Below, in pieces: positions 990 to 50,355 of a stretch of 61,090 nt of DNA. Under the pieces are notes generated by a model. It was given only the letters and a program-made list of their open reading frames with translations. It searched no databases and had not been told where the DNA came from. The stretch spans positions 1 to 61,090 of IMG/VR virus record IMGVR_UViG_3300024232_000010. The stretch is one strand, 5' to 3'. The stretch's first letter is position 1; every line of letters starts with the position of its first letter. The stretch is from a virus (lineage: Duplodnaviria; Caudoviricetes). The position numbers and the translations under genes were made by a program.

Positions 990-1213
990 GGCTTTCCCGC
1001 CAGGGTGGCCGGGGCTGCTGCGGGAGTGGCACGGTGGGTGTGCGGGGCGAGGTACGCGGCGATGGTGTGGCCGGCCCAGGCCAGGATGAACGGCAGCGCG
1101 TCCATTACGGGCTGCGGCAAGCCGTTCTTGAACACGAACGTGACCAGAGCCCACACGACCAGGCCCGTCACGCCGCCTGCTGCCGTACCGGCTTTAACCT
1201 TGGTTTCTATCAT
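986..1213 (-). CDS. Holin-like small membrane protein
   Basis: MIETKVKAGTAAGGVTGLVVWAL..., two hydrophobic segments, next to a putative amidase. Confidence 0.6.
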   Translation of the reverse strand: MIETKVKAGTAAGGVTGLVVWALVTFVFKNGLPQPVMDALPFILAWAGHTIAAYLAPHTHRATPAAAPATLAGKP

Positions 1214-1550
1214 TTTCGCGGACTCCTTCCCTGGCGTGTACCGCGCCATCTCTCTGGGCTCGGTAGATGATCCAGGTACGCCACAATATGATCGGGGGGA
1301 TCGCGGAGATCGAGACGACTATCAGGTAGAGGAACCAGACAGATGTGATGTTGACACCGAACATCTGGTGCAGGAAAGATGGCAGCAGGGCAAGTGCCAG
1401 CGCCCCGTCCAGGGATACCAGGTTCCATCCCAGCGCCGTTTCCCACCACGGATAGAAGAAAGACACCACAACCGGGAAAGAAACCGAGGCGAGGAAACTC
1501 GCTATCACGGCTATCTGAACCCAGTCCATCAGAAAGTGCATCTGCGTCAT
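1194..1550 (-). CDS. Membrane protein with 3 hydrophobic segments (putative holin)
   Basis: Three hydrophobic segments, a PWW motif, and a lysis-cassette position. Confidence 0.55.
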   Translation of the reverse strand: MTQMHFLMDWVQIAVIASFLASVSFPVVVSFFYPWWETALGWNLVSLDGALALALLPSFLHQMFGVNITSVWFLYLIVVSISAIPPIILWRTWIIYRAQRDGAVHAREGVRENDRNQG

Positions 1551-12715: not shown

Positions 12716-13150
12716 TCAGGTACCGGGGATACCCACAGTCGGGTACCGCACGATGGGCGACGCGGCGTTCCAGGTCGACTTCAGCGAAACGGCGGCTGCG
12801 ACACCACCGGTGACACTGTAGTCGGGAAGGATCGTCCCGAAGAAGTACTGGCCAGGGTTGGTGCCCTGGGAACCCAGCGTAGACGGGTACAGGTACATGT
12901 TGCGCGGCAGTCCGTCGGTAGCGGCGACGTAGGTCTGCGCGGTCGCGGTGTCGTAGAACCCCGAGAAGTCACCGGAGGCGTCAGGCAGACCGGCGACCCA
13001 GATCAGGTTCGGGTCACCCATCGCGGTCACGTCGACCTTGTTGACGACGAAGTTGATGGACCAGTCGGTCAGGAACGCCATCGGCGAGGCGGCCGACCCG
13101 GAGTTGACCGCAACGTACGCAATTCCGTTACGGCCGTGAATGCGTGACAC
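12716..13150 (-). CDS. Major tail (tube) protein
   Basis: 144 aa with 'WSIN...DVTAMGD...VAGLPDASGDFSGFYD'. AAGGAGG RBS. Lies upstream of the chaperones. Confidence 0.8.
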   Translation of the reverse strand: MSRIHGRNGIAYVAVNSGSAASPMAFLTDWSINFVVNKVDVTAMGDPNLIWVAGLPDASGDFSGFYDTATAQTYVAATDGLPRNMYLYPSTLGSQGTNPGQYFFGTILPDYSVTGGVAAAVSLKSTWNAASPIVRYPTVGIPGT

Positions 13151-13167
13151 TCTCGTGCCTCCTTAAG

Positions 13168-13230
13168 CTACGGACGGATCTTGTGACAGAGCCGGCTCCG
13201 TCCGCACCCGGGGGTGGCTACGGCCTCGGT
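13168..13230 (-). ncRNA. Conserved structured 5' leader, copy 1 (upstream of major tail gene)
   Basis: Near-identical to 37680-37743. Stems CACCC/GGGTG and GCGGACGGA/TCCGTCCGT. Confidence 0.75.
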
Positions 13231-13242
13231 TTCCTTATTCAA

Positions 13243-14301
13243 TTATGCGTCAAGAAGCTTCAGCAGTCGCCTAGCGTTCTCGTCGAATGTGCGGTTCTGC
13301 ACCGCCTCGCGGGCTGCTGCGCCCGCCGCTTCCCGCTCCCGGTCGTGGGCGAGCCACCAGCGGAGCTGCTCACCGGCGTCTTCGGGACCGGCAAACGTGG
13401 GAAGCATGTGGAGCAGCTCATCCCCCTCGGGGCGGGGGTCGCGGAGGTAGAACAGGCCGCACGCGGCCATCTCCACTTCGCGGGGCCCCATCGCGTAGGG
13501 CTGGACGTGGGTGTCGTCGGCTTCGTCGTACTCGCGGCGGTAGAAGTTGATGCCCGCCTTGGCGTGCCGGTACAGCTCGGCTGTCTCGGTGTTGTCCACG
13601 CACACCTCGGGGCCGTGCCCCATGAACTTGTTCAGCGGTGAATCCTCGCCCAGCTCCACCCAGCAGCCGCCCAGAAGCACGTCCAGGCCCGTCAGGTTCA
13701 TCCGTTCGAAGAACTCCACCCGCGACTTGAAACCCGTCCCGATGAACGTCAGGTCCGTCGCCAGCTCGGGGTTCAGCGGCTTGTCCCCCCGCGGGTAGTG
13801 GATGTGCGGGCGGTAGGCGTGCGGCGCGTACTCGGCGGTCACCCCCAGGGCCCGGTACTGCTCGATGTTCACCGGGTCGTTCAGCAGCGTCACGTCGCTG
13901 CACTGCGCCCGCTCCAGCTGCATCTTCTCCTGGTACGGCGACTCGGTGGTGAGCAGCACCACTTTCATCCGCCGCGACTGGAGCAGCTGGAGGATCCCCG
14001 CTGTGACGAAGAACCCCGACACGAACAGGACCACGTCCGGCCACATCGTGAAACACGCGTGGGACAGGCCCTGCATGCCCGCGCGGAACGCGTCGTCGTT
14101 GGACATCGCCCGGCGGACCAGCGGGTGACCCTCCTCATCCACCTCACCGGTGTCGATCAGCGAGTGGGCGTAGAACTGGATGCGGTCATCGGTGTTGAAC
14201 GACGCGACCTCGCAGCCCAGATTACGCAGCGCCTCCACCCAGCCGTTGTGCACGTCCGCTACGGAGAAATTGGGTCCCGGGTGGACCACCAGAATCCTCA
14301 T
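13243..14301 (-). CDS. Glycosyltransferase, CgeB-like (GT-B)
   Basis: TESPYQ, DLTFIGTG..SR, PREVEMAACG and 'NRTFDENA' motifs typical of CgeB/GT4-like proteins. Confidence 0.75.
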   Translation of the reverse strand: MRILVVHPGPNFSVADVHNGWVEALRNLGCEVASFNTDDRIQFYAHSLIDTGEVDEEGHPLVRRAMSNDDAFRAGMQGLSHACFTMWPDVVLFVSGFFVTAGILQLLQSRRMKVVLLTTESPYQEKMQLERAQCSDVTLLNDPVNIEQYRALGVTAEYAPHAYRPHIHYPRGDKPLNPELATDLTFIGTGFKSRVEFFERMNLTGLDVLLGGCWVELGEDSPLNKFMGHGPEVCVDNTETAELYRHAKAGINFYRREYDEADDTHVQPYAMGPREVEMAACGLFYLRDPRPEGDELLHMLPTFAGPEDAGEQLRWWLAHDREREAAGAAAREAVQNRTFDENARRLLKLLDA

Positions 14302-15979: not shown

Positions 15980-17656
15980 TCATTTCACTGACGAAACGCT
16001 ATCACGCGCCCGTGTCACCGACGATGAACTACCGCTCTTGATGGTCGACGTCTGCGACACCGAACCGTGGCCGGTGACACCATTCGCAGAGCTGTCCGTA
16101 TCGGTCACAGCCGCAGTGGCAGGGTTCTTGACGGTCACTGATGACGTAGAACGCGCAGTGACATGCGGCAGGACCGAGAATGCCTGAGCAGCGGCGACTT
16201 GACCCGCTGCGGTCGGGACCATCGCGGTCACCGCTGCGGCGTTCTTCGGCTGCGGTGAGCTGCCCGTAGCCGAAGCAGGCACAGCCAGGATGCCACGCGA
16301 AGTTGCTGGTGCCACACCCGATACGACAGCAACGACCGGGAAAACCGAAGCGGAAGCCGAGGGCTGCGGCACCGCACCCGTAGCCACCGCTGCCGGTGCG
16401 GTGATAACAAGTCCCGTCGTGAGCGACGGTGCTATCACAGTGCCCGCAGCGACGGGGATGCCGCTGAAAACCGAGATCGAAGCGGTAGCCTGCGGCGCAG
16501 AACCGGTTGCGAATGCTGGTTGCGCAACAGCCTGTACGCTCGCAGCCGCTACAGCACCACCCGTAGCTACTGGCGCGACCAGTGATAGCGAACGTGCAGC
16601 AACCGGAGCAGAAACAGCACCTGTAGCAGTGGGAGCGGCGGGTGCCGCTGATATCTGCGCGACCGGTGCCGGTGCTGTACCTGTCGCAGTGACAGCAGGC
16701 GCGTTGATGATCAGGCCAGTTGCCAGCGACGGTGCCGGTGCCGTGCCTGTGGCAACCGGGATGCCAGCTAGTACCTGCTCGGATATGACCGGCTGGGCGA
16801 CGTTGCCCGTAGCCATGGGTGCCCCGGCTTGCGGCTGGGCATTCGACAGCGGCGCGGGGGACGTGCCGGTAGCAGAAGCGGCTGGTGAGCTGAGAGCTTC
16901 AGAGGCTACTGGCTGAGACGCCGTGCCAGTGGCAGTCACGGCAGGCGCGCCGACGCCACGTGCAGGTGCCGGTGCGGAACCAGTGGCAGCAGGGATGCCA
17001 GGAATGAACGAAGGCGCTGGGACTGCCTGTGGCGCTGCGCCTGCGCCAACGGGGATACCGGCGTTGACCTGCTCGGATACGACCGGCTGCGGTGCGGTGC
17101 CCGTCGCTGTCGGGATACCAGCGTTGACAGTCAGCCCGCTGGTGATAGAAGGTGCGGTTACCGCGCCAGTAGCTACCGGCTCGCCTGGCAGCACCTGAAC
17201 GTTAGCGACAGCGGCGGCTTGACCGGTGGCAGCAGCCGCACCGGCGACAGCGCCAGGCGCGGCCACCGGTGCAGGCGCAGTTCCTGTAGCTACAGGAACG
17301 GATGCGGCAGCACTGCGCTGAGCTACAGGCTGCGGTGCTGCCCCTGTAGCGGTGGGTATCCCCGCGAAAACCGTGACCGCTACACCCGGCTGCGGGGCTG
17401 TGCCTGTCGCAACCGGTATGCCAGCTGTGACGCTTACCCCAGTCGGGACTTGCGCCGGCAAGGTGGGCGGCGGGGGCCATGCCGGTTGAGGGGAGAATCC
17501 CAGCAGCGGGTTGACCGATGCCATCGGGACCGACATCGGGAGCACCGGGCTGTACGTTCTCAGGTCCGGGAACTGCGTGGGTGTCCCGCCGCCGGACAAG
17601 GGCTGCTGCTTGCGGCGGTACCTGCGCTGGTAGGACGGCCCGCCGCGCTGGGTCAT
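15980..17656 (-). CDS. Ala/Thr/Pro-rich repeat protein (putative virion fibre), probably the 3' part of a gene starting at 18318
   Basis: About twenty imperfect ~22-aa repeats of the form VxAGIPxATGxAPxP. Confidence 0.75.
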   Translation of the reverse strand: MTQRGGPSYQRRYRRKQQPLSGGGTPTQFPDLRTYSPVLPMSVPMASVNPLLGFSPQPAWPPPPTLPAQVPTGVSVTAGIPVATGTAPQPGVAVTVFAGIPTATGAAPQPVAQRSAAASVPVATGTAPAPVAAPGAVAGAAAATGQAAAVANVQVLPGEPVATGAVTAPSITSGLTVNAGIPTATGTAPQPVVSEQVNAGIPVGAGAAPQAVPAPSFIPGIPAATGSAPAPARGVGAPAVTATGTASQPVASEALSSPAASATGTSPAPLSNAQPQAGAPMATGNVAQPVISEQVLAGIPVATGTAPAPSLATGLIINAPAVTATGTAPAPVAQISAAPAAPTATGAVSAPVAARSLSLVAPVATGGAVAAASVQAVAQPAFATGSAPQATASISVFSGIPVAAGTVIAPSLTTGLVITAPAAVATGAVPQPSASASVFPVVAVVSGVAPATSRGILAVPASATGSSPQPKNAAAVTAMVPTAAGQVAAAQAFSVLPHVTARSTSSVTVKNPATAAVTDTDSSANGVTGHGSVSQTSTIKSGSSSSVTRARDSVSSVK

Positions 17657-24409: not shown

Positions 24410-25450
24410 TTACTCCTCCACCAGCCATTCGGGGTGCTTGAGGCTCCAGAGCACGGTCTTCTCCAGGCTGGTCTCGAAATCGACCGGCGGTGCCCAGCCC
24501 ATGCCCATCAGCTTGGACGGGTCAAGCCCGTAGTGGGGGTCGTGTCCCGGCCTGGCGCTGTGGAAATCGACCAGCTTGTGGTTCAGCGGCTTGCCGACGA
24601 TGTTCGCGATCATCGACGCCAGGTCCAGGTTAGACACCGGGTTCGGACCGGCTATGTTGTACCGGTCGGGCAGCATGGCCGTGTCCAGGCCCACGTTCTG
24701 CGGGGTCGGGAACGCGGACGGCCGGCCACGTTCGATCAGGAACACCAGCGCGTCAGCCAGGTTCCTCGCATGCAGGTAGTGGCGGGTGCCGATGTCACCC
24801 GGCTGTCCGTAGACGCGGACGATCTCGCCACGCTGAACCTTCCCGATCGTCATCGGCACGTACTTCTCCGGGTCCTGCATCTCACCGAACAGGTTCATGC
24901 AGTTCACGATCACCACCGGCACACCGTATGCCCGCCAGTACGAGATGGCGATGGCCTCCTGTGCCGCTTTCGACGCCGAGTACGGGTTCGACGGGATAAT
25001 CGGGGCCCACTCCTTGTGCGCCTGACCCGGCACGGTCGGCCCGTACACCTCGTCGGTGGAGATGACGATGACCAGTCGCGGTTTGACCTGCCTGCACAGC
25101 TCCAGGGTGTTCAGGATGACGTCGGTGTTGTTACGCACGAACGGAACAGGGTCAGCCAGCGACCGGTCCACATGCGACTGGGACGCCATCGCGATCACCA
25201 CGTCCAGCGTGCCGATCCGCCCGATCTCACCACCGGTGAACGGCGCGGCCAGGTCGTGCGTGATCACGGTCAGCCGCTCATGCCAGCCGCTGTTCTCCGG
25301 TGCCTCTGCGAGGATCCGGGCGATACGGTCGCACCTGCCCTTGTGCCGGAAAGAATCCGTCCCGACCAGGTGCCAGTCGGTCTTGGTGAGGATGTGCTCC
25401 GTTACGTGCGAACCTATAAACCCGCCAGCACCTGTCAGTAGCACCCTCAC
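24410..25450 (-). CDS. rmlB: dTDP-glucose 4,6-dehydratase-like extended SDR
   Basis: TGAGGFIG, SHVDRS, STDEVYG, PSNPYSASK and RPGHD motifs. Confidence 0.85.
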   Translation of the reverse strand: MRVLLTGAGGFIGSHVTEHILTKTDWHLVGTDSFRHKGRCDRIARILAEAPENSGWHERLTVITHDLAAPFTGGEIGRIGTLDVVIAMASQSHVDRSLADPVPFVRNNTDVILNTLELCRQVKPRLVIVISTDEVYGPTVPGQAHKEWAPIIPSNPYSASKAAQEAIAISYWRAYGVPVVIVNCMNLFGEMQDPEKYVPMTIGKVQRGEIVRVYGQPGDIGTRHYLHARNLADALVFLIERGRPSAFPTPQNVGLDTAMLPDRYNIAGPNPVSNLDLASMIANIVGKPLNHKLVDFHSARPGHDPHYGLDPSKLMGMGWAPPVDFETSLEKTVLWSLKHPEWLVEE

Positions 25451-26460
25451 CGGCGGAACAACCCCTCGTAAGCGTCAGCCCACATTTTCCAGCCCTTCTC
25501 GATGGTGTACTCCCGGGCGCGTTCCCGCGCCGCCGCGCCCATCTTCTCACGCAGGGCATCGTCACCGGCAAGCTCAGACATGTACCTGAGCCATTCGTGG
25601 TCCTGCTTGACCAGGAAACCGGTCTCGCCGTGTACCACGAAATCCCGGTACGGGTAATAGTCAGAAGCTACCACCGGTATGCCCAGCGCCCCGTACTCCA
25701 GCGCCTTCAGCCACGACTTCGACGCGTTGAACTTCGTCGCCGTGACCGGTGCCAGGCCGATATCCCAGTCCGGTGCGGTGTAGAAACCCCGGTCATCATC
25801 GGTGACCTGCACCCACGGGGTGAAGATAGCCCGTTCACCCGCCTTGAACGTAGGACGGTAGTCCGTCGCTGCGATGCGCAGGTCCCAGCCGGGGAACCGT
25901 TTCAGGAACCGGCGGACCGGCCCCGCGATAAGGCCGACATCAGCACCATGGGAAGCGCCGCCCGTCCAGCCGACCGCTGGCCTGGCCCGCCGGTTCCGCT
26001 CAATGTCACACACCCAAGCGGGTATGTGATTCGGCAGCACGACGACGTTCGGGTTGTACTGCCGCAGCACCTCCGCCAGAGGCTCCGTAGAGCACGTGAT
26101 CAGATCAGCGACCTCCATCGCGTGCGTCGCCGCGTCGATGATGTCCGGCCGCTGCCAGAAGTTGTACGCCTGGAAGTTCTCCGGTGTCACCGAGAACACG
26201 TCGTCGTCCAGCTCGTACACCAGGCGGTTACGCGGAATCCTTGCCTCACGGAACACGTGGACGCCACCCGGCTTGTTGAACCGCTGTGCCACGATCACGT
26301 CGTGGCCTTCCATTGTCCGGGCGTTGATACCCGGGCCGTTGTCAGTATCCGCTGAGGCGAGCGTCACGTCATACCCGTGCGCCTGGAGCTGCCGCATCGG
26401 CAGGATCATCCGGTACCATCCGCACCCGGAACCACCGTCATGCCCGGCGAATATCTTCAC
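25447..26460 (-). CDS. Glycosyltransferase (GT-B, GT4-like)
   Basis: GCGWYR, YELDDD, FNASKSWLKALEYGALGIPVVAS, HGETGFLV. Confidence 0.85.
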   Translation of the reverse strand: MKIFAGHDGGSGCGWYRMILPMRQLQAHGYDVTLASADTDNGPGINARTMEGHDVIVAQRFNKPGGVHVFREARIPRNRLVYELDDDVFSVTPENFQAYNFWQRPDIIDAATHAMEVADLITCSTEPLAEVLRQYNPNVVVLPNHIPAWVCDIERNRRARPAVGWTGGASHGADVGLIAGPVRRFLKRFPGWDLRIAATDYRPTFKAGERAIFTPWVQVTDDDRGFYTAPDWDIGLAPVTATKFNASKSWLKALEYGALGIPVVASDYYPYRDFVVHGETGFLVKQDHEWLRYMSELAGDDALREKMGAAARERAREYTIEKGWKMWADAYEGLFRR

Positions 26461-27934: not shown

Positions 27935-28545
27935 TGGGACACCCGGAAGCGGGACGGCCACACGTCGGACGTCTCATAGTCCACGTTGACGTACTGGATG
28001 CCAGCGTCAAGCCAACGTTCGACCAGTTCCCAGTCTTCTTTCCATGACGCCGGCCCCCACGTGCCATGCTCCAGAACCCACCGCCGGTGCATCAGCATGG
28101 GCGAACCGATGTTCCCCGGGGCCAGCGGACCCCACCCGACCGTGACCGCGTGGGCGTGGTGTGACACCATGCGGGACACGGCGAACCCCGCATCAGGAGC
28201 GGCGTCCAGCGCGGCGGCCAGCTTCGAGCAGTGATCCGGGCGCAGGCTGTCATCATCGTCGCAGTAGGTGATGTACTCACCCATCGCATACTCAAGGCCG
28301 AGCAGCCGGGCGTGATGCCCGTAATGCTCCTCGCTGTCATGCACGGCCACCTCGTAGTAGCGCGGCCCGGAACCCTGGTACCGGGCGTTGAACTCCGATG
28401 CCAGCACCGGGTCCGGCCCGTCACAGACGACAACGTGGTCGACAAGCGGGTAATCCTGCGCCTGGACAGACGGTATGCACCGGGTGAACAGCAGGTCGCG
28501 GCGCTGCCACGTCGGGGTGATCACCGAAACAGCTCTGGTTCTCAT
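27931..28545 (-). CDS. Glycosyltransferase family 2
   Basis: VSVITPTWQR, VVCDG, YCDDDD, EDWEL. Confidence 0.88.
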   Translation of the reverse strand: MRTRAVSVITPTWQRRDLLFTRCIPSVQAQDYPLVDHVVVCDGPDPVLASEFNARYQGSGPRYYEVAVHDSEEHYGHHARLLGLEYAMGEYITYCDDDDSLRPDHCSKLAAALDAAPDAGFAVSRMVSHHAHAVTVGWGPLAPGNIGSPMLMHRRWVLEHGTWGPASWKEDWELVERWLDAGIQYVNVDYETSDVWPSRFRVSQ

Positions 28546-29813
28546 GAGGACACCATATGCGTGTCGAAGAAACCGTCCTGCGCGCCCAGGTGCGAACGGA
28601 AACGGTATGTGCTGATCATCTCCTCGCGGATCTCGATCAGCTCATCCGCGGACAGGTCCGGGGTGCGGACTACCGCGTCGGTGCCGCGGTTCTTCTGCCC
28701 GTACGCGCCGAGCCCCTCCCCGGTGAACGACAGGTCTTGCGTTATCCCCTCGTCCATTTCCCGGCGCAGCTCGGTTCCCTTGTACGGGTAGTAGATCGCT
28801 ATCTGCGCGTCGTCGATACCGGACTCGCAGATGAACCGCTCAGTCTCCGCGACCGTCTTGCGATTCTCCCCCGGCAGGCCGATCATCAAGAACGCCTTTA
28901 CGGTGATCCCGTGGTCCTTGCAGTGGCGCACGCACGCGTAGTTCTGTTCCACCGTGGTCTTCTTGTCGATACGGTCCAGGATCTGCTGGGAGCCGCTCTC
29001 CGCCCCGAATGCCACCTCGACGCAACCCGCGTCCGACAGGGCGGCGGCGAACTCGTCCGTCATGAAACGGGCGTGGACGTTGCACCGGAACTTCAGGCCC
29101 GACCGTTTCAGCAGGTCCAGGTACGGCTGGCATTTACCCAGGTTGATCGCGAACAGGTCATCGAACAGGTACACGCCCCGGTAGCCCAGCTTCACGATGT
29201 CGTCCAGCTCGGCATCCGCGTTGGCCAGCGACGTCCACCGGGTCAGCGTCCGGGCGTCCTCGCAGAACTTGCACGCCATCGGGCAGCCACGCCCCAGCAT
29301 CATCGTGGTCGAGTACAGGCCCGCCAGGGTGTACTTGTAGCCGCGGAGGAAACTTGCCTCACCCAGCCGGTCCGGTGGCGGCATCTTCGCCAGCTCAGCC
29401 CTCGGGATCTGGTCGTACGACAGGCGACGAACCTTCTCACCGCTCAGGATCTGCGGCAGGACCCGCTCCCCGTCCCCGCCGACCAGGTAGTCCCAGAAGA
29501 TGGGCATGTCCCGGCCGTAATGCCGGACGTGCGGCCCGCCCGCGATGACCGTCTTGCCAGGCCACCGCATTTTGATCGCACACGCCAGGTCGTCCGCCTC
29601 GGCCCGCTGCGGGGTCATCACCGACACGCCCACCACGTCGGCATCAGCGAAGTCATCAGCACCGCTGTAGTCGTCGACCACGGCGACCTCGACGTCGGGC
29701 AACCCGGCTTTCACCGCTGACTTCAGGTACAGAAGACCCAGAGGCGGGTAGATGCGGTCGCTGTCAAGGAAAGGTGAACGGCACGAAACCAGTGTCAGCT
29801 TCACGTCCCTCAC
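28542..29813 (-). CDS. B12-binding radical SAM protein (class B methyltransferase-like)
   Basis: PPLGLLYL, GGPH, RGCPMACKFC (CxxxCxxC), GAESGSQ, MIGLPGE. Confidence 0.9.
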   Translation of the reverse strand: MRDVKLTLVSCRSPFLDSDRIYPPLGLLYLKSAVKAGLPDVEVAVVDDYSGADDFADADVVGVSVMTPQRAEADDLACAIKMRWPGKTVIAGGPHVRHYGRDMPIFWDYLVGGDGERVLPQILSGEKVRRLSYDQIPRAELAKMPPPDRLGEASFLRGYKYTLAGLYSTTMMLGRGCPMACKFCEDARTLTRWTSLANADAELDDIVKLGYRGVYLFDDLFAINLGKCQPYLDLLKRSGLKFRCNVHARFMTDEFAAALSDAGCVEVAFGAESGSQQILDRIDKKTTVEQNYACVRHCKDHGITVKAFLMIGLPGENRKTVAETERFICESGIDDAQIAIYYPYKGTELRREMDEGITQDLSFTGEGLGAYGQKNRGTDAVVRTPDLSADELIEIREEMISTYRFRSHLGAQDGFFDTHMVSS

Positions 29814-31140
29814 CGTCCTTCGCGGGGATAGGGATGATGCCGAGACCGAAGAACGGCCTGCCCTCAGCCGGTGCGGGCCGGTCAGTCTGACTGGTCCACT
29901 TCAGCCCGCGTTCCTTGCAGTACACGCCGATCGCCTCAGCGACCGGGTACTCAGGGCCGTTGACGTCTTCGTGTGCACCCGGTTCGCCGTAGGCGACCAT
30001 CTGCCCGATGGTCAGTTCCACGTCGTGCATCAGGATCACTCCGCCCGGCCTGACCCGATGACCGAACCTGCGCAGCTCAGCCAGCGTGTGCTCATACCGG
30101 TGGGATGTGTCGATGAACAAGATGTCCAGCTCACCGGGGATGAAACGGGCCGCTTCTTCGCTCATGTCGTCAGCGGACAGGAAATCCCACAGCCCGCATG
30201 CTGCCCACTCGTTCGTCGAAGGGCCCATGTCGACAGACCACACATGCCCGCCGCTGGCCGCAGCCCCCGCCAGGAACGCCGAGGTTGACTCGCCCGTGCG
30301 CGTGCCCAGCTCGGCTATCACCGGTGCGCTGTAAGAACGGGCCGCCTGCCGAAGAATCGGCATCTGCTCCTGGATGTCCGACCACGCACCGAGCCTGGCC
30401 GCGTACCCTTCTTCGAGCCAGCGGAGCGTAGCCAGCGAGTAGGTGTCTTCCGCTCGCCACAGCGTGTACGGCTCATGGTAGAAAGGCTGGTCCACGGTCC
30501 CGCCAGCACCGGCCCGCCACGCCCCGCCGCCCTCGGCGTGCGTCGAGTCTGACTCGCAGCCGGTCAGGTCGGGGCGTTCCTGGTGGACGTAGATACCCGG
30601 GTGCACCAGTGCCCCCGCGTCCCTGCCCACGTACTCGAACCAGGTGTCCAGCGCGGGCAGCGGGGCGAGACGCCCGATCGCTGACAGCGCGTCGGCGTGC
30701 ACCGCGGGGAAACAGGTCAGGCCCGGGTAGTTCCCGTTCAGGAACGCGATGCTGGCAGCGGGAAGTTCCCGCAGCATGTCGTCCCAGCCGCGGGTTTTCA
30801 TGATCGCATCATCGGACCAAGTCGCCATGATCCACTCACCCGACGACCGGTTCATCAGCTCAGCCCAGTAGTGGCCCGAACGGACGTAACCGTACCTCTC
30901 CGGTGCCTGCCACACCACGTCAGCGTTCATCAGGGCCGCTGACAGGCCCGTCTCGATGTCATCCGGGTCGTGCGCGACCAGTATCTCTATCAGCTCCGGT
31001 CGTGCCGCTGTTGTCACCAGCGACTGGAGGGAAGCCTCCAGCTTGGCAGTCCTGTTCCGGGACGGTACCGTCACTGAGATGACCCCGCTGCGCCGCAGGG
31101 CCGGGGGGCGCAGGCGCAGCGGGATCATCGGCTCACTCAC
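29764..31140 (-). CDS. Glycosyltransferase (GT-A) fused to an O-methyltransferase
   Basis: N-terminal VPSRNR...DPDD...SDD...DTW. C-terminal ELGTRTGEST...FIDTSHRY...GGVILMHD. Confidence 0.8.
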   Translation of the reverse strand: MSEPMIPLRLRPPALRRSGVISVTVPSRNRTAKLEASLQSLVTTAARPELIEILVAHDPDDIETGLSAALMNADVVWQAPERYGYVRSGHYWAELMNRSSGEWIMATWSDDAIMKTRGWDDMLRELPAASIAFLNGNYPGLTCFPAVHADALSAIGRLAPLPALDTWFEYVGRDAGALVHPGIYVHQERPDLTGCESDSTHAEGGGAWRAGAGGTVDQPFYHEPYTLWRAEDTYSLATLRWLEEGYAARLGAWSDIQEQMPILRQAARSYSAPVIAELGTRTGESTSAFLAGAAASGGHVWSVDMGPSTNEWAACGLWDFLSADDMSEEAARFIPGELDILFIDTSHRYEHTLAELRRFGHRVRPGGVILMHDVELTIGQMVAYGEPGAHEDVNGPEYPVAEAIGVYCKERGLKWTSQTDRPAPAEGRPFFGLGIIPIPAKDGEGREADTGFVPFTFP

Positions 31141-32299
31141 CGAACACCACCGGGGACGGGAGTGGCACGATGAACTTCCCCTGGTAGCCGCGTTTCCGCA
31201 GCGACACGATCAGGCTGTGCGCGATGTCCCAAGCCAGGATCAGCGCGTAAGGCGGCTGCTCGTCGAACAGCACCTGCTCATCCACGATCGGGACCTGCGT
31301 GCCAGGTATGACAGCGCCGATCTTGTCCGAACCCGCAACCTCACACGCGCACGTCAGGTACTTGCCGAGCCCGGCGAAGTTGACCAGCGGTGTCGCCCGG
31401 GTGGGTGCTGTCACCGCGTAGACAGGACCCGCCTTGACCGCCTCGTCCATCAGGGACGTGAGCTTGTTAACCATGCCCATCACGCGCACTTCCAGGTGCT
31501 GCTTCTCCTTCTGCACCACGGCGCGGAACGAACCGCCGTGCATCCCGATCCGGTTCCAGCTGACGATCATCAGGCCATGCCGGGCGAGCAGCAGGCCCAG
31601 CGAAGCGGGCGTGTAGAACCGCTGGTGCTCATGATAGATCGTGTCGATCTGGAGGCCCTCCACGACGTTGTACCAGTCCTGGTTGTCGATCAGGAACGTG
31701 CCGTGCCTGTCCAGGAGAACCTGTATCCCGTCGAGGAAGTCGTGCACGTCGTGGACGTGACCGAACACGTTCGACGCGACGATGACCTGCGCGCTGCCAT
31801 GCGACTCGCGGATCTTCCCGGCCAGCTCAGCGTTGAAATATTCCTGCACGAACTGCACGCGGGGGTCGTCGCATTTCTTCACCTGGTCGGTCGGTTCGAC
31901 CAGCAGCAGCTCCGCGTCGGGTGCTTCCACAGCGAGTGCTTTCAGCATCGTCCCGTCGTTACCGCCGATGTCAACGACAAGCGGCCTGTAATCCGCGTCC
32001 AGGGTGGGGTCAGACCAAAGCAGCGAATCCACGTACTCGGCTTGCGCAGCGAAATGCTCCCGCAGCGCCTTGGTGTTCCCGGTCGTATACGGGTAGTCCA
32101 CGGGGAACACTTCGTCCCGCGGTGCGATAAAATCGAGCTGGACGAGGGTGCAGGTGGGGCATTCCACCAGGCGGAGCGGGTAACGCTTGTTCTCACGGCC
32201 GGGGACCGCCTGCGGGGTCGGCTGTACGCCCAGGTCAAGGACGTGGCGCAGACCCCCGGAGCCGCACGACTCGCAGTGGTAGACGGGCCCGTCAGCCAT
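31133..32299 (-). CDS. NDP-sugar C-methyltransferase (TcaB9/EryBIII/NovU-like)
   Basis: Zn motif CESC...CPTC.LVQL, DIGGNDG, NVFGHV, YHEH, HGGS, ILAW, FIVPLP. Confidence 0.88.
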   Translation of the reverse strand: MADGPVYHCESCGSGGLRHVLDLGVQPTPQAVPGRENKRYPLRLVECPTCTLVQLDFIAPRDEVFPVDYPYTTGNTKALREHFAAQAEYVDSLLWSDPTLDADYRPLVVDIGGNDGTMLKALAVEAPDAELLLVEPTDQVKKCDDPRVQFVQEYFNAELAGKIRESHGSAQVIVASNVFGHVHDVHDFLDGIQVLLDRHGTFLIDNQDWYNVVEGLQIDTIYHEHQRFYTPASLGLLLARHGLMIVSWNRIGMHGGSFRAVVQKEKQHLEVRVMGMVNKLTSLMDEAVKAGPVYAVTAPTRATPLVNFAGLGKYLTCACEVAGSDKIGAVIPGTQVPIVDEQVLFDEQPPYALILAWDIAHSLIVSLRKRGYQGKFIVPLPSPVVFGE

Positions 32300-33260
32300 G
32301 ATTCTCCCGGTACCAGGCGGCTGCGCGGGCGAGCCCCTCATCGAACGGGACCTTAGGGCCGTCGTAGCCGAGGCGCATCAGCTTGCCGATGTCAGGGAGC
32401 CGGCGGGACGGTGAGCCTTTCGGCAGGATCCCCGGTTCGATCTTGATCTCCCGGCCGTAGCATTCCGCCAGGCGGTAGGCCACGTCGGCGACAGTGTGCT
32501 CGTCCATGGTGCCCATGTGGTAGATCTCAGCCCCGGCAGGCGACTTCGCGAGCAGCAGCATGAACTGGTCGATGCAGTCGTCGATCCAGCAGAACGACCG
32601 GGTTTCCTCACCGCTGCCCTGGATCGGGAACGGAACCGGTGCTGATCCTCTGCCCCACTGGGGAAGCTCGTTGAACCGCTGGCAGAACTCGGGTATCACA
32701 TGATGGGTGCCCATGTCCGGTCCGTAGATATTATGCGGGCGGACGATTATCAGCCGGTCCAGGATTCCTGTCCGCTGCCACGCCAGGGCAGCTAGCTCGC
32801 TGGCTATCTTCCCGCCACCGTAGGAGTAGCGGGGGTTCAGCGTGTCAGGAACGACCAGTGGCACGTTCTCCGGGGTGGGCCACACCGGGGGTGTCTCGTA
32901 TGCCTCCGACGAGGACACCAGGACCAGCTCCCGGCAGCCTGTCGCCCGGCACGCTTCGAGGACATTCACGATCCCCCGCAGCGCCACGTCGAGGACCTGG
33001 CGTGGCTCGGAGTAGAAAGTCTGGGTTCCCTGCATGTAAGCAAGGTGGATGACCGACTCCGCACCCTGAGCTGCGACAAGGACCGCATCGGGGTTACGCA
33101 CGTCGCCGTCGAAGACATCGCAGCGTTCCAGCCCGGCCAGGCGGCGGGAAGCACCCCGGGAGAAGTCATCCAGGACAGCTGTCTCGTGACCTTCCCTGCT
33201 GAGCCTTCGGGTCAGCGAAGACCCGATGAAACCGGCACCACCGGTGATCAGATATCTCAC
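32292..33260 (-). CDS. NAD-dependent sugar epimerase/dehydratase/reductase (extended SDR)
   Basis: TGGAGFIG, SSSEAY, YGGGK, RPHNIYGP, TRSFCWIDD. Confidence 0.88.
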   Translation of the reverse strand: MRYLITGGAGFIGSSLTRRLSREGHETAVLDDFSRGASRRLAGLERCDVFDGDVRNPDAVLVAAQGAESVIHLAYMQGTQTFYSEPRQVLDVALRGIVNVLEACRATGCRELVLVSSSEAYETPPVWPTPENVPLVVPDTLNPRYSYGGGKIASELAALAWQRTGILDRLIIVRPHNIYGPDMGTHHVIPEFCQRFNELPQWGRGSAPVPFPIQGSGEETRSFCWIDDCIDQFMLLLAKSPAGAEIYHMGTMDEHTVADVAYRLAECYGREIKIEPGILPKGSPSRRLPDIGKLMRLGYDGPKVPFDEGLARAAAWYRENHG

Positions 33261-34054
33261 GGCGTCATACTAGCGTGCCGGGGCCGGAACCAACCGGGCG
33301 GGCAGTGCCTTTCCCGTACCCACCGTGGCCACGTGTCGTCTACGTCCACGGGTATCAGTTGGTCGGTGTAACCGAAATTCCCGAACGGGTTATGTCCCTC
33401 ACGGTAGAACAGGTCGTCGCCGTTGCCGTGGTTCAGCGCGTCGTTGACCTCGGTGTGGCAGTGGGAATCCATCTTCGCCTGGATCCCCTGCTTGCCGCCC
33501 AGCCACGTCAGGTGGTGCCCAGTACCCGGCAGCTCCGGTCCTTTCGTCCACCCGTCGCGGCGCGCGGCGGCGAACGACGTGATACCGCCTACCGGGCGGG
33601 ACACGGACGTTTTCAGCGGCCTGCCCCACAGCCAGTCGACCGCGAACATGCAGCACACCATCTCGAACACGCCCGGCTGCTGGTTCAGCACTGTTTCCAG
33701 CGCCTTGCCGTTCGGGATCTCATCGACGTCCGCGAGGATGATCCAGTCGCTATCTTCAGCGTCTGTCAAACCGCGTCCGATTGCTTCGCGCTGCACCGCT
33801 TCCTTATCCATCGGCGCGGCACCCGCAGGCAGGTCATCGACAACCACGTGGACGATCTGGTCCGACCAGGCCGAGAAGCGCTCCTTGTTCTCCGCGTAGA
33901 ACAGCGGCTTGGGATGCCCCTGGTGGTCCAGGGTGGCCTCGACCAGGACGTGCGTGTACACCGGCCAGGAATCCATCTCCACCAGGCGGCATTCCAGCAT
34001 GTCCAGTTCGTCGCGGAACAGGAACGTGTCGAAAATTCTCACCCGCGCCGCCAC
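33257..34054 (-). CDS. Glycosyltransferase family 17-like (MGAT3-type)
   Basis: DTFLF.DELDML..R, LVEA...GHPKPL, QRE, DVDEIP, HLTWLGG. Confidence 0.8.
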   Translation of the reverse strand: MAARVRIFDTFLFRDELDMLECRLVEMDSWPVYTHVLVEATLDHQGHPKPLFYAENKERFSAWSDQIVHVVVDDLPAGAAPMDKEAVQREAIGRGLTDAEDSDWIILADVDEIPNGKALETVLNQQPGVFEMVCCMFAVDWLWGRPLKTSVSRPVGGITSFAAARRDGWTKGPELPGTGHHLTWLGGKQGIQAKMDSHCHTEVNDALNHGNGDDLFYREGHNPFGNFGYTDQLIPVDVDDTWPRWVRERHCPPGWFRPRHASMTP

Positions 34055-36419: not shown

Positions 36420-37661
36420 TCAGGATGCAGCGCCGACGTACAGCTTGATCGCCCCGGTGCGGTCGACCAGTGTCCCGTCACCGCGAAGGATCGCGCGGAA
36501 CGTCACGAGGTCGGTGCCGAAAGCGAAGTCGTCGGAACGCTCGAAGCGGACCCCGCCGACTAGCCGCACGAAGTACTGCGAGAAGTCACCGAAAGCGATG
36601 GCCTTCGCCGACAGGCCCTGCGCGGGCATGAACGGGTCAGCGACCAGCGGCTTGCCAAGCAGGAGGTCGGGCGAGCCGAGCACCGCGGAAGGCTCCCAGA
36701 TGGGACGCCCCGTGGTGTCGGTGATCTTGCGGAACCCGCCGATGGTCTTGTCGGCCGCGAGCCAGTAGCAGCTGCGGGACTGGCGGTACGGCGCGATGAC
36801 GCTGTACTCCAGGTCTACCAGGTTCGCGTACGACGGGGCGCCGGAAACACCGGTCGTCGCACCGGTGACGCCGGTCGTGGCGGTTGACACGATACCCGCG
36901 GGCTGCGAGGTACCGGAGCCGTTCACGAGGTCGTTGCCGAACGCGTTACCCAGAGCGCGTCCGGCCTGCATCGCGAGGTACCCCAGAAGGTCCACGGCGG
37001 TGTCGTCGATCAGCTCGCGGGCGACCTGCAAGAGAATGCCATACTTGTAGGCCGACAGCGGCTGCATGGAGAACGTCGGGTCAGACGTCGGGATAGCGCC
37101 CGCCTGCGCCGCGGAGGCGGCGGTGGAGTGCGCGGTGGTCTTCGGCACCTGGAGCGTCTCGCCGCCACCGGTGTTCAGGACCGTGGGACCGCACTGCATC
37201 ACGCCGCTGACCTCAATGAGGTGCGCGATGAGCTGGTCGTAGAAGTCGGTCGGGATGATCGACGATGCGGTGCCCGTGGTCACCAGGGTCCGGTAGTTGA
37301 CAGGCCCGGATGCCTGACGGCGGATTTCCAGCGTGCGGGGAGCCCCGTCCTCGCCGCGAGCCCACTTGCGGACCTCAGCGGCTATGTCGGACTGGCGCTG
37401 CTCGCCGCCACCGCTCTCACGCGGGCGACCCTCAAGGTCGTTGAACGCGTCGTCTGCGGCCTTGGCCCGCTTCTCGGTGTCAAGCACCGCACCGATGCGC
37501 TGGTCGAGAGTGCGCATCTCTTCCTGCATCGCGTCCCACTTGCCCTGCTCCTCAGGGGTGAAAGCGCGGTTCTCGGCGGCTGCGTCCTCAGCGATCTTCT
37601 TCGCGTCGTTCCAGACGTTCAGCCGGCGGTCGCGAAGGCGCTTAGCGACCTCACTAGCCAT
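36420..37661 (-). CDS. Major capsid protein, HK97 fold with N-terminal delta domain
   Basis: Coiled-coil N-terminus, KYGILLQVARELIDD, LLGKP, FGDFSQYFVR, R.DG. Confidence 0.95.
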   Translation of the reverse strand: MASEVAKRLRDRRLNVWNDAKKIAEDAAAENRAFTPEEQGKWDAMQEEMRTLDQRIGAVLDTEKRAKAADDAFNDLEGRPRESGGGEQRQSDIAAEVRKWARGEDGAPRTLEIRRQASGPVNYRTLVTTGTASSIIPTDFYDQLIAHLIEVSGVMQCGPTVLNTGGGETLQVPKTTAHSTAASAAQAGAIPTSDPTFSMQPLSAYKYGILLQVARELIDDTAVDLLGYLAMQAGRALGNAFGNDLVNGSGTSQPAGIVSTATTGVTGATTGVSGAPSYANLVDLEYSVIAPYRQSRSCYWLAADKTIGGFRKITDTTGRPIWEPSAVLGSPDLLLGKPLVADPFMPAQGLSAKAIAFGDFSQYFVRLVGGVRFERSDDFAFGTDLVTFRAILRGDGTLVDRTGAIKLYVGAAS

Positions 37662-37679
37662 TCCTGGCCCTCCTGACTA

Positions 37680-37743
37680 CTACGGACGGATCTGTGATAG
37701 AACCGGCTCCGTCCGCACCCAGGAGGGTGGCTACGGCCTCGGT
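37680..37743 (-). ncRNA. Conserved structured 5' leader, copy 2 (upstream of major capsid gene)
   Basis: Near-identical to 13168-13230; sits just upstream of the AGGAGG RBS. Confidence 0.75.
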
Positions 37744-37761
37744 GGCAACTATTAAATTATC

Positions 37762-37848
37762 TTACTTACCGCACATGCGACAAGTCTTCGCGAAGTAAGG
37801 ATTGAGGTGCCCGCAGTCCGGGCACTTCCACTTACTTCTCGTCCTCAC
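37762..37848 (-). CDS. 28-aa RanBP2-type zinc-finger micro-protein
   Basis: MRTRSKWKCPDCGHLNPYFAKTCRMCGK matches W-x-C-x2-C-x3-N-x6-C-x2-C. Confidence 0.6.
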   Translation of the reverse strand: MRTRSKWKCPDCGHLNPYFAKTCRMCGK

Positions 37849-37987
37849 CCTGCTCACCCTCGGGTATCGAACCACCAGGGTTAGGGCTTCCCTCGTATTC
37901 CCTATCGGCGAACCTGATCCCCTCGGACTTCAGCTTGCCGTCCTCATCCAGGGGGCTTTCCTCGTTCGCCGGTCCGGGGGTGCTCAC
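37832..37987 (-). CDS. 51-aa acidic micro-ORF
   Basis: GTGA-coupled to the protease stop; MSTPGPANEESPLDEDGKLK... Confidence 0.5.
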   Translation of the reverse strand: MSTPGPANEESPLDEDGKLKSEGIRFADREYEGSPNPGGSIPEGEQGEDEK

Positions 37988-38994
37988 TGGTCCGCGTACG
38001 GGTCTTCGGCGTTGTCCAGCAGGTCCAGCAGGGCCAGCGCGCCCGTTAGGGTCTTCTTGCGCTCCTGCTGCTGCTTGGCCTGCCGCGCCGGTCCGATGTT
38101 GTCGGTCCTCTTGAAGAACTCCATCGCCCGGTTCTCCGCCAGCCTCTCCCGGACCTCGTCCGGTTCGGCCTGCACCCACTCCGACAGAGAGCGGACAGCG
38201 CCGTCCATCGAACGGGCCGCCGCCGTCGCATCCGGGTACGCCGGGTCGAGCACGGGGGCCACGTCGATCAGCTGAACGGCGTGCAGGGTGCGCATCGGGT
38301 AGTCGAACTCGCTGACACCCCACTCGTCACCGCCGGGGAACACGCGGAAAGCGAACGAGCTGTGCCGGATGTCACCGCGCTGCACGTACTCCAGGACGTC
38401 CCGCCGTGAGTCCGGTGGGATCACGTCGTACATCAGGCCAGTGTCATCGACGGACAGGCTCAGCGTCCGCGCGTACGTGGTCCCGAGCAGCGCATCGTCC
38501 TTGTGGTTGTACCGGCACACCACATCCGGCCAGCCCTCCTGCTTGGACTCGTCGAACGCGTTCCGGTTGACCTGCTCGACGAAACCGCCAAGCCGGCGCG
38601 ACAGCTTACCGAAGCACGCCGCGTAACCCCAGATGTGCGCGGGACCCTCCTTGCCCACCGGGTCGCTGCGCAGTTCCAGCGGGAACCGGATGAACCGCCG
38701 CTCAGGGAAAGCCTCCGGGTCCGGCTCCATGCCGCCGAAAGCACGCTGCACAGCGGTCGGCTTGATGCCGAACTTCCGCGCAGCCGCCATGATCTTCGGC
38801 ATGGCCATCTTGCCGAACGGCGACTGCGAGGCACGAGACAGTGCGTTCCGTGCGTGGGCCTCGTCGTGCACGGGGAAATGCCGCTTGCTCCGGGGCGTGG
38901 TCCGGCCCTGCGCGTCCTTCATGCCTCCGCTTTCGATGAAAGCGAAAGCGCTGTCCGGCAAATCGTTGATCGCCTGACTGGACAATTCAGCCAT
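37984..38994 (-). CDS. HK97-family prohead protease with an extra N-terminal domain
   Basis: GYAACF, YNH, RGDIRHSSFAF, DVAPV..PAY. N-terminal 'LPDSAFA...RHFPVHDEAHARNALSR' domain. Confidence 0.92.
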   Translation of the reverse strand: MAELSSQAINDLPDSAFAFIESGGMKDAQGRTTPRSKRHFPVHDEAHARNALSRASQSPFGKMAMPKIMAAARKFGIKPTAVQRAFGGMEPDPEAFPERRFIRFPLELRSDPVGKEGPAHIWGYAACFGKLSRRLGGFVEQVNRNAFDESKQEGWPDVVCRYNHKDDALLGTTYARTLSLSVDDTGLMYDVIPPDSRRDVLEYVQRGDIRHSSFAFRVFPGGDEWGVSEFDYPMRTLHAVQLIDVAPVLDPAYPDATAAARSMDGAVRSLSEWVQAEPDEVRERLAENRAMEFFKRTDNIGPARQAKQQQERKKTLTGALALLDLLDNAEDPYADQ

Positions 38995-39016: not shown

Positions 39017-39031
39017 TAAACTTAGGCCATG
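39017..39031 (+). promoter_or_regulatory. Putative leaderless promoter (-10 TAAACT-N6-ATG)
   Basis: TAAACT taggcc ATG with no RBS. Confidence 0.5.
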
Positions 39032-39583
39032 GCCAGATATATCCCCGGCAAGACCTGCCAGCAGTGCGGCGGCCTGATCCCCTGGAGGGATGGACGGTCC
39101 GCCCGTGAGAATGCGAAGTTCTGCGGCAACCACTGTAAGCTGGCTTACCAGTCAGAAAATCCTTCACGCCCACGTATTGAACGGGTGACCGTACCGTGTG
39201 CCGAGTGCGGCAAACCAGTCACCTTCCTGCCTTCGCAGCGCGGCTCGTACAAGCCGGGCCGTACCGACAACATCTACTGCGACCGTAAGTGCAAAGGTGC
39301 AGGTCACAGTAAGATCATGACAGGGCGGCGCCCAAGTAACGGCATCTATACCAGCGTAAGTACGTTCCGCTGGATCGCCCGTAAGGCTTTCTATGACCGT
39401 TGCTCACTCTGCGGCTGGGACGAGGCCCCGTGCGACGTGGCCCACATCGTCAGCCGCAAGGATGGCGGTACGGACGATCTGGAGAACGTGACGATGCTGT
39501 GCCCGAACCACCACCGCATGTACGACTGCGGACTGATCACACAGGATCAAGTCAGGCAGAATCGCTTCAGGGTCCTCAGGTGA
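39029..39583 (+). CDS. HNH endonuclease with N-terminal Cys-rich repeats
   Basis: CSLCG..DVAHIVSRKDGGTDDLENVTMLCPNHHRMYD. Confidence 0.9.
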   Translation: MARYIPGKTCQQCGGLIPWRDGRSARENAKFCGNHCKLAYQSENPSRPRIERVTVPCAECGKPVTFLPSQRGSYKPGRTDNIYCDRKCKGAGHSKIMTGRRPSNGIYTSVSTFRWIARKAFYDRCSLCGWDEAPCDVAHIVSRKDGGTDDLENVTMLCPNHHRMYDCGLITQDQVRQNRFRVLR

Positions 39584-39792
39584 GGTGGTCTTGGCGTAAG
39601 AGCCGCGAACCCCGCGAACGCTGGTATGTGCAGTTCGAGGAAGGTGGCCACGTCTACACCTATATGCGGACGTACAGCGATTTCTGCCGAATCATGCAGG
39701 ACCGGCATACGGGCGGCGATGATCCACCCTTTGCCATCTGGGTCGTACGGAAGGGCGAACGCTGTCGTGTAACAATCCGCCTAGAACCCTAG
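39580..39792 (+). CDS. Hypothetical protein
   Basis: GTGA-coupled to the HNH gene; MRWSWRKSREPRERWYVQF... Confidence 0.5.
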   Translation: MRWSWRKSREPRERWYVQFEEGGHVYTYMRTYSDFCRIMQDRHTGGDDPPFAIWVVRKGERCRVTIRLEP

Positions 39793-41411: not shown

Positions 41412-41521
41412 GCGGTCCCTTCCCTCCGGGTAGAAGTTTGTTATACTCATGATGCTCAGTGACCTGAGCACGGGCTGGTCCTCAATAAGCCATTACGCGC
41501 CCAAACGGGGCTGGCCCGCAC

Positions 41522-47226: not shown

Positions 47227-47484
47227 ATGGCCAACCCCCATTCACCGCTGACGAAGATCAGGGCCCGCCTGGCGACATGGCTCGAACCCTACCCGGATAG
47301 GGGCGAGGCGTGGTGCGTCAACTGCGCGCTCAACGGCGGGCGGACCCTGATCGTGCCCGCGACCGGTCACGCTCGTCATGTCATGCAGCATCGTGACGAA
47401 CAGGGCATGCGGAGCGCTGTGAGCATCCGGGTTAGCTGGGGGTCTGCCGGGCCCCATCTCTGCGACGAACAGGACGACGACTGA
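47227..47484 (+). CDS. Hypothetical protein
   Basis: Coupled ORF with CxxC and HxxxH. Confidence 0.55.
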   Translation: MANPHSPLTKIRARLATWLEPYPDRGEAWCVNCALNGGRTLIVPATGHARHVMQHRDEQGMRSAVSIRVSWGSAGPHLCDEQDDD

Positions 47485-48794: not shown

Positions 48795-48796
48795 CA

Positions 48797-50206: not shown

Positions 50207-50220
50207 TGGAGCCGATAGAG

Positions 50221-50296: not shown

Positions 50297-50355
50297 GCGT
50301 GTCCGGGCCTGTTACTGCTACCCCGCACGGGCGGCCCGGACAGGTATCAGTGTAG

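Follow-up and report, generated by a model that had tools for sequence, protein, structure and literature searches.

Late mRNAs of phages of the T7 group carry conserved leader hairpins and RNase III sites, repeated before the major capsid gene and other late genes, and these genes are highly expressed. RAT hairpins are bound by antiterminator dimers of the BglG/LicT type, and stabilisation of the hairpin by the protein excludes a rival fold, in that case a terminator. How tailed phages arrive, after transcription, at the very different quantities of their virion proteins is poorly understood. In phage Mu, as outlined in PMC6483171, the Com protein binds a short hairpin adjoining the helix that holds the mom start codon, and binding of the factor to this hairpin is thought to open the start-codon helix. 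More than 10,000 candidate structured RNAs have been reported from viral metagenomes, 'five candidates' among them being placed 5' of a major capsid protein (PMC10690425). Here we describe an RNA element, backed by covariation, that is devoted to the two virion proteins of highest abundance and is shared throughout a large clade of uncultured soil phages, whose contigs reach 210 kb. It is very likely a functional, structured leader RNA, and it probably sets the output of these two proteins.

The window analysed was the whole stretch of a 61,090-base IMG/VR virus record, estimated to be ~49% complete. An earlier note on this DNA had claimed that a leader of ~63 nt occurs in it twice on the minus strand, and both copies were indeed present, with the letters as given, at 13168-13230 and 37680-37743. 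Copy 1 precedes the major tail protein gene (12716..13150, minus strand; 144 aa, GTG start; PHROG 10528, E 7e-8) and copy 2 precedes the major capsid (head) protein gene (36420..37661, minus strand; 413 aa, ATG start; PHROG 10, E 1.5e-65). The copies differ in a loop, which is CC in copy 1 and TCCT (UCCU in the RNA) in copy 2, in C13191 versus T37702 and G13187 versus A37698, and by one extra A (13181). The 17-mer GGTGCGGACGGAGCCGG had exact matches in the window at the two copies only, and the covariance model of the element, R1, run on the whole window with filters off, scored copy 1 at 62.8 bits, copy 2 at 61.6 bits and the third-best place at 10.7 bits. Thus, from the unique 17-mer and the gap in scores, the leader repeat is not due to chance. 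Folding of single sequences was unremarkable for copy 1 (z -0.5 to -0.8) and was significant solely for the 121-nt leader of copy 2 (z -3.85).

The same note had placed an AT-rich box, ATAATT(G/T)AATA, 5' of both copies and an AGGAGG a few nt beyond their 3' ends, and each was found at both sites. Exact matches to the box numbered two in the whole window, one per copy, namely ATAATTGAATA at 13236..13246 (minus strand), a promoter candidate 5 nt upstream of the basal helix of copy 1, and ATAATTTAATA at 37750..37760 (minus strand) at copy 2. Boxes akin to it (ACAACTGAATA and similar) were present in relatives. Scanning of a 700-nt region on the gene strand gave no sigma-70-type match at the copy-1 box, and the copy-2 box overlaps a weak sigma-70-like match (TTGTCG, 16 nt, GATAAT; 37783-37756). 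AGGAGG lies 4-5 nt 3' of each copy (13158-13163 and 37669-37674). As read in the sequence, the start signals of the tail gene (13148..13163, minus strand) are the Shine-Dalgarno (SD) AGGAGG 13163-13158 and GTG 13150-13148, and those of the capsid gene (37659..37674, minus strand) are AGGAGGG 37674-37668 and ATG 37661-37659. One relative's contig, from two RNA runs that contained contigs of relatives only, spans the capsid gene into the apical hairpin of the element (37468-37725) and shows neither start nor transcription.

The earlier note had not recognised the leader as a member of any named family, and a search of Rfam 15 agreed with this, giving no match to the element. At gathering thresholds, the whole window yielded nothing but tRNA-Met (50221-50296, minus strand). 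A permissive scan (E <= 10) of 6034 bases round both copies, in which the element occupies L001 1477-1539 and L002 1478-1541, gave 6 weak matches, none of them overlapping the element. No similar DNA was found in cultured phages, and the capsid protein is < 33% identical to any cultured phage capsid. We found no description of the motif in the literature, its presence, perhaps without a name, in the supplementary catalogue of PMC10690425 being left aside. On comparative grounds, the element represents a genuine family of cis-regulatory RNAs, not named before, that belongs to virion-protein genes. Within the reach of sequence analysis, the proposal of a cis-acting RNA common to the capsid and tail genes is upheld, whereas their co-regulation by it is what we infer.

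The capsid protein had 438 relatives in viral contigs, and upstream regions were taken from the best 80 of the 438 (76-100% identity, contigs up to 210 kb). The regions upstream of these 80 capsid loci were almost wholly diverged save for two blocks, GG(C/U)CGUAGC and CGGACGGAGCC, between which lay a hairpin variable in sequence and length or, in some, just a 6-7-nt loop. One R1 match at E <= 0.01, always just 5' of the capsid start, was obtained at 77 of the 80 loci with a model trained on 45 of these same capsid-locus sequences; L018-L021, L023 and L053, which lie outside the training set, still matched. A reduced variant, recognisable by eye alone, was carried by L028, L029 and L043. The exact two-block pattern occurred in 83 stretches, and among the 80 loci listed from these, 64 were capsid leaders by a peptide test, 4 were capsid leaders by eye (L005, L226 and two cut loci), 3 were tail leaders and 9 look like chance matches within coding sequence. 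A search of phage genomes for further copies had been suggested along with the leader, and the element does recur 5' of capsid and tail genes elsewhere.

The capsids of the element-bearing clade are most like those of actinobacterial prophages (50-67% identity). Since capsid relatives in bacterial genomes (27-67% identity) were mostly from prophages of Streptomyces and other Actinomycetota, the likely host phylum is Actinomycetota. None of 55 actinobacterial prophage capsid loci (27-67% identical) carried the element at E < 0.1, nor did any have a weak match at the capsid start, and the element is therefore confined to one clade. Prophage loci L271, L272, L273, L279, L288 and L297 carry another motif, roughly GGCAGGGCGCCACCCACCTCGC, 40-120 nt 5' of the capsid start and sometimes doubled, the capsids of those prophages being 50-62% identical. 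Locus L270 retains a ACAACTGAATA box, followed by the GGCAGGGCGCCACCCACCTCGC-like prophage motif.

Comparison of the leaders revealed that the conserved unit of the element is a bulged hairpin, predicted to have a fold different from that drawn in the earlier note. It consists, in order, of a short covarying basal helix (P1a); the pairings GG/CC and CCGU/ACGG with an invariant bulged AG between them on the 3' strand; an AGC/CGG internal loop; and an apical hairpin (P2), which is variable and dispensable. Assigned by the family structure, the core hairpin of copy 1 is the R1 match at 13191..13230 (minus strand). Its P1a pairs ACCG 13230-13227 with CGG 13194-13192, with A13230 opposite C13191 (A.C); the 5' strand continues as GG 13225-13224, CCGU 13223-13220 and AGC 13219-13217; P2 is formed by CACCC 13216-13212, the loop CC and GGGUG 13209-13205; and the 3' strand returns as CGG 13204-13202, ACGG 13201-13198, the bulged AG 13197-13196 and CC 13195-13194. 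The core hairpin of copy 2 is likewise the R1 match at 37702..37743 (minus strand), where P1a pairs ACCG 37743-37740 with CGGU 37705-37702; GG 37738-37737, CCGU 37736-37733 and AGC 37732-37730 make up the 5' strand; CACCC 37729-37725, the loop UCCU and GGGUG 37720-37716 form P2; and CGG 37715-37713, ACGG 37712-37709, the bulged AG 37708-37707 and CC 37706-37705 make up the 3' strand. Among the stems listed in the earlier note, GGC/GCC and CACCC/GGGTG are part of the conserved structure, whereas the long stem GCGGACGGA/TCCGTCCGT and TCT/AGA are limited to the window clade. What had been taken for a bulged GCCGG is instead the 3' strand of the covarying basal helix P1a.

While the flanks of these leaders have wholly diverged, about 20 nt, among them the unpaired AG and AGC/CGG, show little or no variation. 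Common to all variants are P1a and GG..CC / GG-AG-CC with its bulged AG, and where tail variants have additional nucleotides on one strand, the other strand has additional ones to match. The core strands read G-CCGU-AG-C and G-ACGG-AG-C, a near two-fold symmetry that would suit a dimeric binder.

Covariation among homologues, a check that the earlier note had called for, was clear. The alignment held 45 non-redundant capsid-leader sequences, from which RNAalifold unaided predicted two helices, P1a and CCGU/ACGG. The full structure, which adds to these helices the G-C pairs across the bulged AG, one C-G pair and P2, was paired in 91.7% of 611 cells, as compared to 25-47% with partners slid, and 9 of its 14 pairs had changed on both sides; none of 500 shuffles attained such values. 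Since the sequences share ancestry, such shuffle counts, and the permutation counts given below, are not probabilities. The tail-leader set, in an alignment fitted to the model, was 93.5% paired with 10 of 14 pairs changed on both sides. Compensatory changes included C-G to U-A in L087, G-C to A-U (CCAU/AUGG) independently in L023 and L101, and G-C to U-A in P1a of L024, L030 and L036; core pairs are thus kept by compensation within the window clade too (L023; L024, L030, L036). G.U pairs made up 51 of the 611 cells, where the opposite strand would give A.C mismatches, and the conserved blocks stand 6 to ~37 nt apart with a covarying hairpin between them. The G.U pairs and the variable spacing argue for an RNA on the sense strand and not a double-stranded DNA site. 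The very high identity of both blocks and the conserved AT-rich box adjoining them would also suit a site acting at the DNA level, whether an operator, part of a phage promoter or a single-stranded-DNA hairpin promoter. Such a role is, however, highly improbable in view of the varying block spacing, the compensatory changes that retain pairing, the strand-specific G.U cells and a downstream strand that pairs with the start codon.

Other structures were tried on the same leaders and rejected. An extended P1 (AUCUGC/GCAGAU), competing with the start-codon helix in distant capsid leaders, was 58.9% paired, which equals the value obtained with partners slid by 2. A kink-turn is a three-nucleotide bulge followed by tandem sheared G.A pairs; CCGU and ACGG, which would be needed for this bulge and the G.A pairs, are Watson-Crick paired with compensations (L087, L023, L101). 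Likeness to a tRNA, to group II domain V or to a tetraloop receptor, judged by eye, did not fit the covarying pairs and had no Rfam match.

All 10 whole related records had an R1 match, in 1-4 places each, the lowest-scoring matches (L106, L107, L118) looking like chance in coding sequence. A second copy stood directly 5' of the tail-gene homologue in G001 (61.9 bits), G003, G006 and G009, ~85 nt upstream of it in G005 and ~1 kb upstream in G004; the tail copy of G003 is a minimal form without the AGC/P2/CGG part. Between element and tail start in G004 (L100, ~500-1500) lies ~1 kb in which neither a convincing ORF nor an Rfam match was seen. The tail gene of G005 (L105) is interrupted, with two Rfam group I intron matches at 730-1014 and 1149-1413 (minus strand; 54.7 and 55.6 bits against a gathering score of 50), a short way past the MSRIHG start. 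Further copies of the element precede functionally unassigned genes of the virion region, including that for a conserved Cys-rich protein and a gene adjoining a minor tail protein. In G004, G006 and G009, a longer leader of ~180 nt (L104, L115, L116), which opens with a core-like CGUAGC-hairpin-CGGACGG, lies upstream of the Cys-rich protein (CPGC..FLEC.CP) and a 145-157-aa protein.

The tail protein had 154 relatives in viral contigs, and the best 80 of the 154 loci gave 55 distinct upstream regions. In 22 of these 55 tail leaders, a match (E <= 0.03) had its end no more than 100 nt from the tail start; several more held variants of the element visible by eye, and the R1 model detected no element in 33 of the 55. 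Since some tail genes follow the upstream (glycosyltransferase-like) gene directly, the element is dispensable there. Among tail loci L155-L191, many leaders of the distant clade show, by eye, a two-block promoter-like motif 30-70 nt 5' of the element, roughly GTTCATAAAC, 8-10 nt, GTTAC.CTGGT, which is unlike the AT-rich box of the window clade.

An element that lies directly 3' of a promoter-like box, heads long same-strand gene arrays and recurs two to four times per genome at the head of virion gene blocks might be a promoter-proximal antitermination element over long late operons, acting on RNA polymerase directly or via a hairpin-binding protein. This is clearly improbable. In every capsid case and most tail cases examined, the element ends 15-68 nt from the start codon, and the segment that follows it pairs with and tracks its own ribosome site, which antitermination would not need; moreover, the two 700-nt regions scanned on the gene strand held no terminator-like site.

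In the window clade, the core is followed by a clade-specific 3' extension, at 13190 down to 13168 (13168..13190, minus strand) in copy 1 and 37680..37701 (minus strand) in copy 2. The strand UCCGUCCG within it (13178-13171 in copy 1; the anti-core strand at 37690-37683 in copy 2) pairs with the core's CGGACGGA, and this 'anti-core' helix CGGACGGA/UCCGUCCG is the long stem of the earlier note. Since it uses the 3' half of the core, the long stem and the CCGU/ACGG core cannot coexist. The minimum-free-energy fold of both copies is the one drawn in that note, with -36.0 kcal/mol for the tail copy 1 as compared to -21.1 kcal/mol with the core enforced, and -45.8 versus -28.3 kcal/mol for the capsid copy 2. 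Nearest-neighbour energies thus leave the conserved hairpin at a disadvantage of 15-17 kcal/mol to the rival fold in either copy, and to overcome this it would need strong stabilisation or co-transcriptional trapping. At the capsid copy, the long-stem fold extends and fully buries the SD; the closed fold so formed in copy 2, a long and irregular duplex, comprises roughly 22 pairs and is confined to the window clade. In a third type of leader (G004, G006, G009), 13-14 nt of the 3' half of the core have a perfect complement in a downstream strand. From this strand and the core compensations within the window clade, both alternative folds appear to be under selection. The mutually exclusive pairing is found in both window copies and the third leader type, and is not predicted in distant capsid leaders.

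In those distant capsid leaders, the segment after the core complements the start codon and the next codons and changes with them, as in GAUGCCAU with AUGGCAUC, GAAGGCA with UGCCUUC and GAUGGCA with UGCCAUC. These duplexes had a cognate mean of -13.3 kcal/mol versus -10.3 kcal/mol for non-cognate combinations, reached by 0 of 10000 permutations (n=36, related sequences). In the window clade, it is the 5' strand and loop of P2 that complements the SD and tracks its changes (CCCUCCU-AGGAGGG, CCCUUUC-GAAAGGG, CCCUUCC-GGAAGGG, CCUUUCC-GGAAAGG); in copy 2, the SD complements CCCUCCU at 37727-37721. The means here were -10.8 kcal/mol for cognate and -9.2 kcal/mol for non-cognate pairs, reached by 44 of 10000 permutations (n=11, related sequences). 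Many tail leaders have a GGCUCC(C) 3' of the core that pairs, by eye, with the SD. Tail leaders free of the element likewise hold the SD in a small hairpin; the occluding helix is therefore a general feature, to which the conserved hairpin seems to be an added 5' module. Thus, as in Com/mom, a hairpin lies directly 5' of a helix containing the SD or start codon, as indicated by the folds and by the tracking in relatives.

Constraint folding of all leaders located the core by a loose regular expression, which in many tail rows took the SD for the core, at distances of 3-7 nt, and which overlooked some true cores. With these crude core positions, some of them wrong, enforcing or blocking the core in distant capsid leaders left the predicted accessibility of the ribosome site unchanged, a negative result of little weight. 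Distant tail leaders have the order GGAGCC, GGCUCC, SD, a geometry which could equally mean that core formation closes the SD, and the sign of control is therefore not uniform.

We tentatively propose, giving it somewhat less than an even chance, that the hairpin is the recognition site of a trans-acting factor, binding of which would favour the conserved fold and keep the ribosome site accessible. The proposal draws on the analogy with Com and mom of Mu and on the anatomy of the leaders. The element would be a structured segment within the mRNA leaders of the genes for major capsid and tail tube, and of a few more virion-region genes in relatives, and would be recognised by a factor, most likely a protein, encoded by the phage or the host. 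The hairpin would directly adjoin lineage-specific helices holding the SD or start codon. In the window clade, its 3' half could pair instead with the downstream copy-cat strand UCCGUCCG, after which the P2 loop could pair with the SD, yielding a 'closed' fold of far greater stability. By holding the conserved hairpin together, a factor would then keep the ribosome site open, as Com does for Mu mom. The sequences themselves show the repeat, its conservation throughout the family, its pairing as RNA and the occluding helices; binding of such a factor, translational control and its direction (activation) are what we infer from these leaders.

The same leaders could act in mRNA stability or processing, the hairpin being a 5'-terminal stem-loop against 5'-end-dependent decay or the closed fold a substrate of the RNase III type, in which case cleavage would release the anti-SD arm and so yield the mature message. 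With 5-6 nt between the AT-rich box and P1a, transcription could start right at the foot of the hairpin. In distant capsid leaders, an A-rich stretch, seen by eye, separates a hairpin spanning the upstream stop codon from the element. Structure extends over the entire leader as far as the start codon, copy 2 in its closed form offers a long irregular duplex of roughly 22 pairs, and the genes served encode the most abundant virion proteins. We nevertheless regard a stabiliser or processing signal as rather unlikely: a simple protective stem needs no sequence identity, yet ~20 nt including AG and AGC/CGG are (near-)invariant, and the irregular duplex of about two helical turns that RNase III would require occurs only in the closed fold of the window clade and not in the conserved core.

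For recognition by a trans-acting factor, no binding factor was identified in this analysis, the sole candidate being a 37-aa zinc-ribbon ORF with four Cys at 37762-37875 (minus strand), between the protease gene and the capsid leader. It had sub-threshold Pfam matches only, and its Trp/Asn spacing is presumably RanBP2-like. A similar ORF ending in CxxCG(K/R)-stop lies 5' of the leader in L023, L028, L036 and L079. As a conserved partner, the ORF was rejected: the 10 related records gave 3 weak matches elsewhere (E 0.0095-0.065), with no match in the 4 records >= 90% complete, short proteins being hard to detect. A cognate small zinc-finger activator gene, as in Com/mom, was not found among the 10 related records.

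The factor might also be a small molecule. In a riboswitch of this kind, the conserved bulges would form the ligand pocket and the ligand would select the core over the closed fold. The element does have an aptamer-like core backed by covariation, with invariant junction and bulge nucleotides, a covarying dispensable stem, variable peripheral stems and downstream platforms that differ between lineages, and the window clade has two mutually exclusive folds. Against this stand a gene context of virion proteins and not of metabolism or transport, the absence of a match to any known class, a gap of 15-17 kcal/mol between the folds, which is large for ligand control, and the fact that no switch is predicted in distant capsid leaders, so that a riboswitch is improbable. 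If the factor were nevertheless a small molecule, it would mean a new riboswitch class in a new biological setting.

As to what such a ligand could be, the gene context offers no hint beyond the sugar-nucleotide genes nearby. The capsid and tail genes flank ~22 kb of same-strand genes for NDP-sugar epimerase/dehydratases (24410-25450, 32292-33260), glycosyltransferases (13243-14301, 25447-26460, 33257-34054), a B12-binding radical-SAM enzyme (28542-29813) and C-methyltransferases (29764-31140, 31133-32341), all on the minus strand. The block at 13243-35000 (minus strand) looks like a virion glycosylation cassette. The tail gene may have its own leader because this ~22-kb block parts it from the capsid gene. 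In some mycobacteriophages, the capsid and tail-tube subunits are the glycosylated proteins. A speculative reading, which draws on that glycosylation and nothing more, makes the hairpin the ligand-sensing aptamer of a phage-borne riboswitch gating capsid and tail-tube translation, and we hold it slightly more improbable than a riboswitch as such. If it were true, the signal could be a phage glycosylation product or a host nucleotide messenger, and the subunits would be made only when it is present.

Other features of the window were recorded in passing. An HNH endonuclease gene (39029-39583, plus strand) lies on the opposite strand between the portal (39789-41471) and protease (37984-38994) genes. 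Within a 558-aa ORF (15980-17656) without a Pfam match, the stretch 16664-17424 contains in-frame direct repeats of several families, with units of 25-77 nt and spacings in multiples of 3. The plus-strand arm at 47484-55967 encodes a DNA methylase (47484-48794), a DUF6283 protein, a SLOG-family protein, an S24 peptidase-like protein (54137-54616) and a GH5 cellulase-family protein (54693-55967).

The hairpin, 40 nt long and with a bulge that does not vary, offers a mutable handle for testing whether virion stoichiometry is controlled after transcription, as well as bait for the factor that would read it. Among described systems, com/mom of Mu, as far as the outline in PMC6483171 goes, shares with it a short hairpin in a late-gene leader directly 5' of the helix that holds the start signals, and in the window, too, a small zinc-ribbon ORF closely precedes the capsid leader. 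The two differ in that sequence and fold are unrelated, the element here serves at least two genes per genome, the zinc-ribbon ORF lacks conservation in genomes that carry the element, and binding is putative. Phages of the T7 group also have repeated, conserved leader hairpins ahead of the major capsid gene; in contrast, the present element has invariant unpaired nucleotides across diverged phages, a dispensable apical stem and, in the window clade, a rival pairing that buries the ribosome site. Among the phage candidates of PMC10690425, motifs such as those associated with GP20 are, by their description, similarly structured and placed 5' of phage structural genes in data of the IMG/VR type; the motif described here is absent from Rfam 15. 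Small hairpin-aptamer riboswitches resemble the element in having a conserved core, covarying peripheral helices and lineage-specific platforms that include SD sequestration, whereas the element matches no Rfam class and lies in the context of virion genes. Finally, RAT hairpins are likewise imperfect hairpins with two internal irregularities, a near two-fold symmetry and a rival fold. In RAT the rival fold is a terminator, whereas that of the present element hides the ribosome site.
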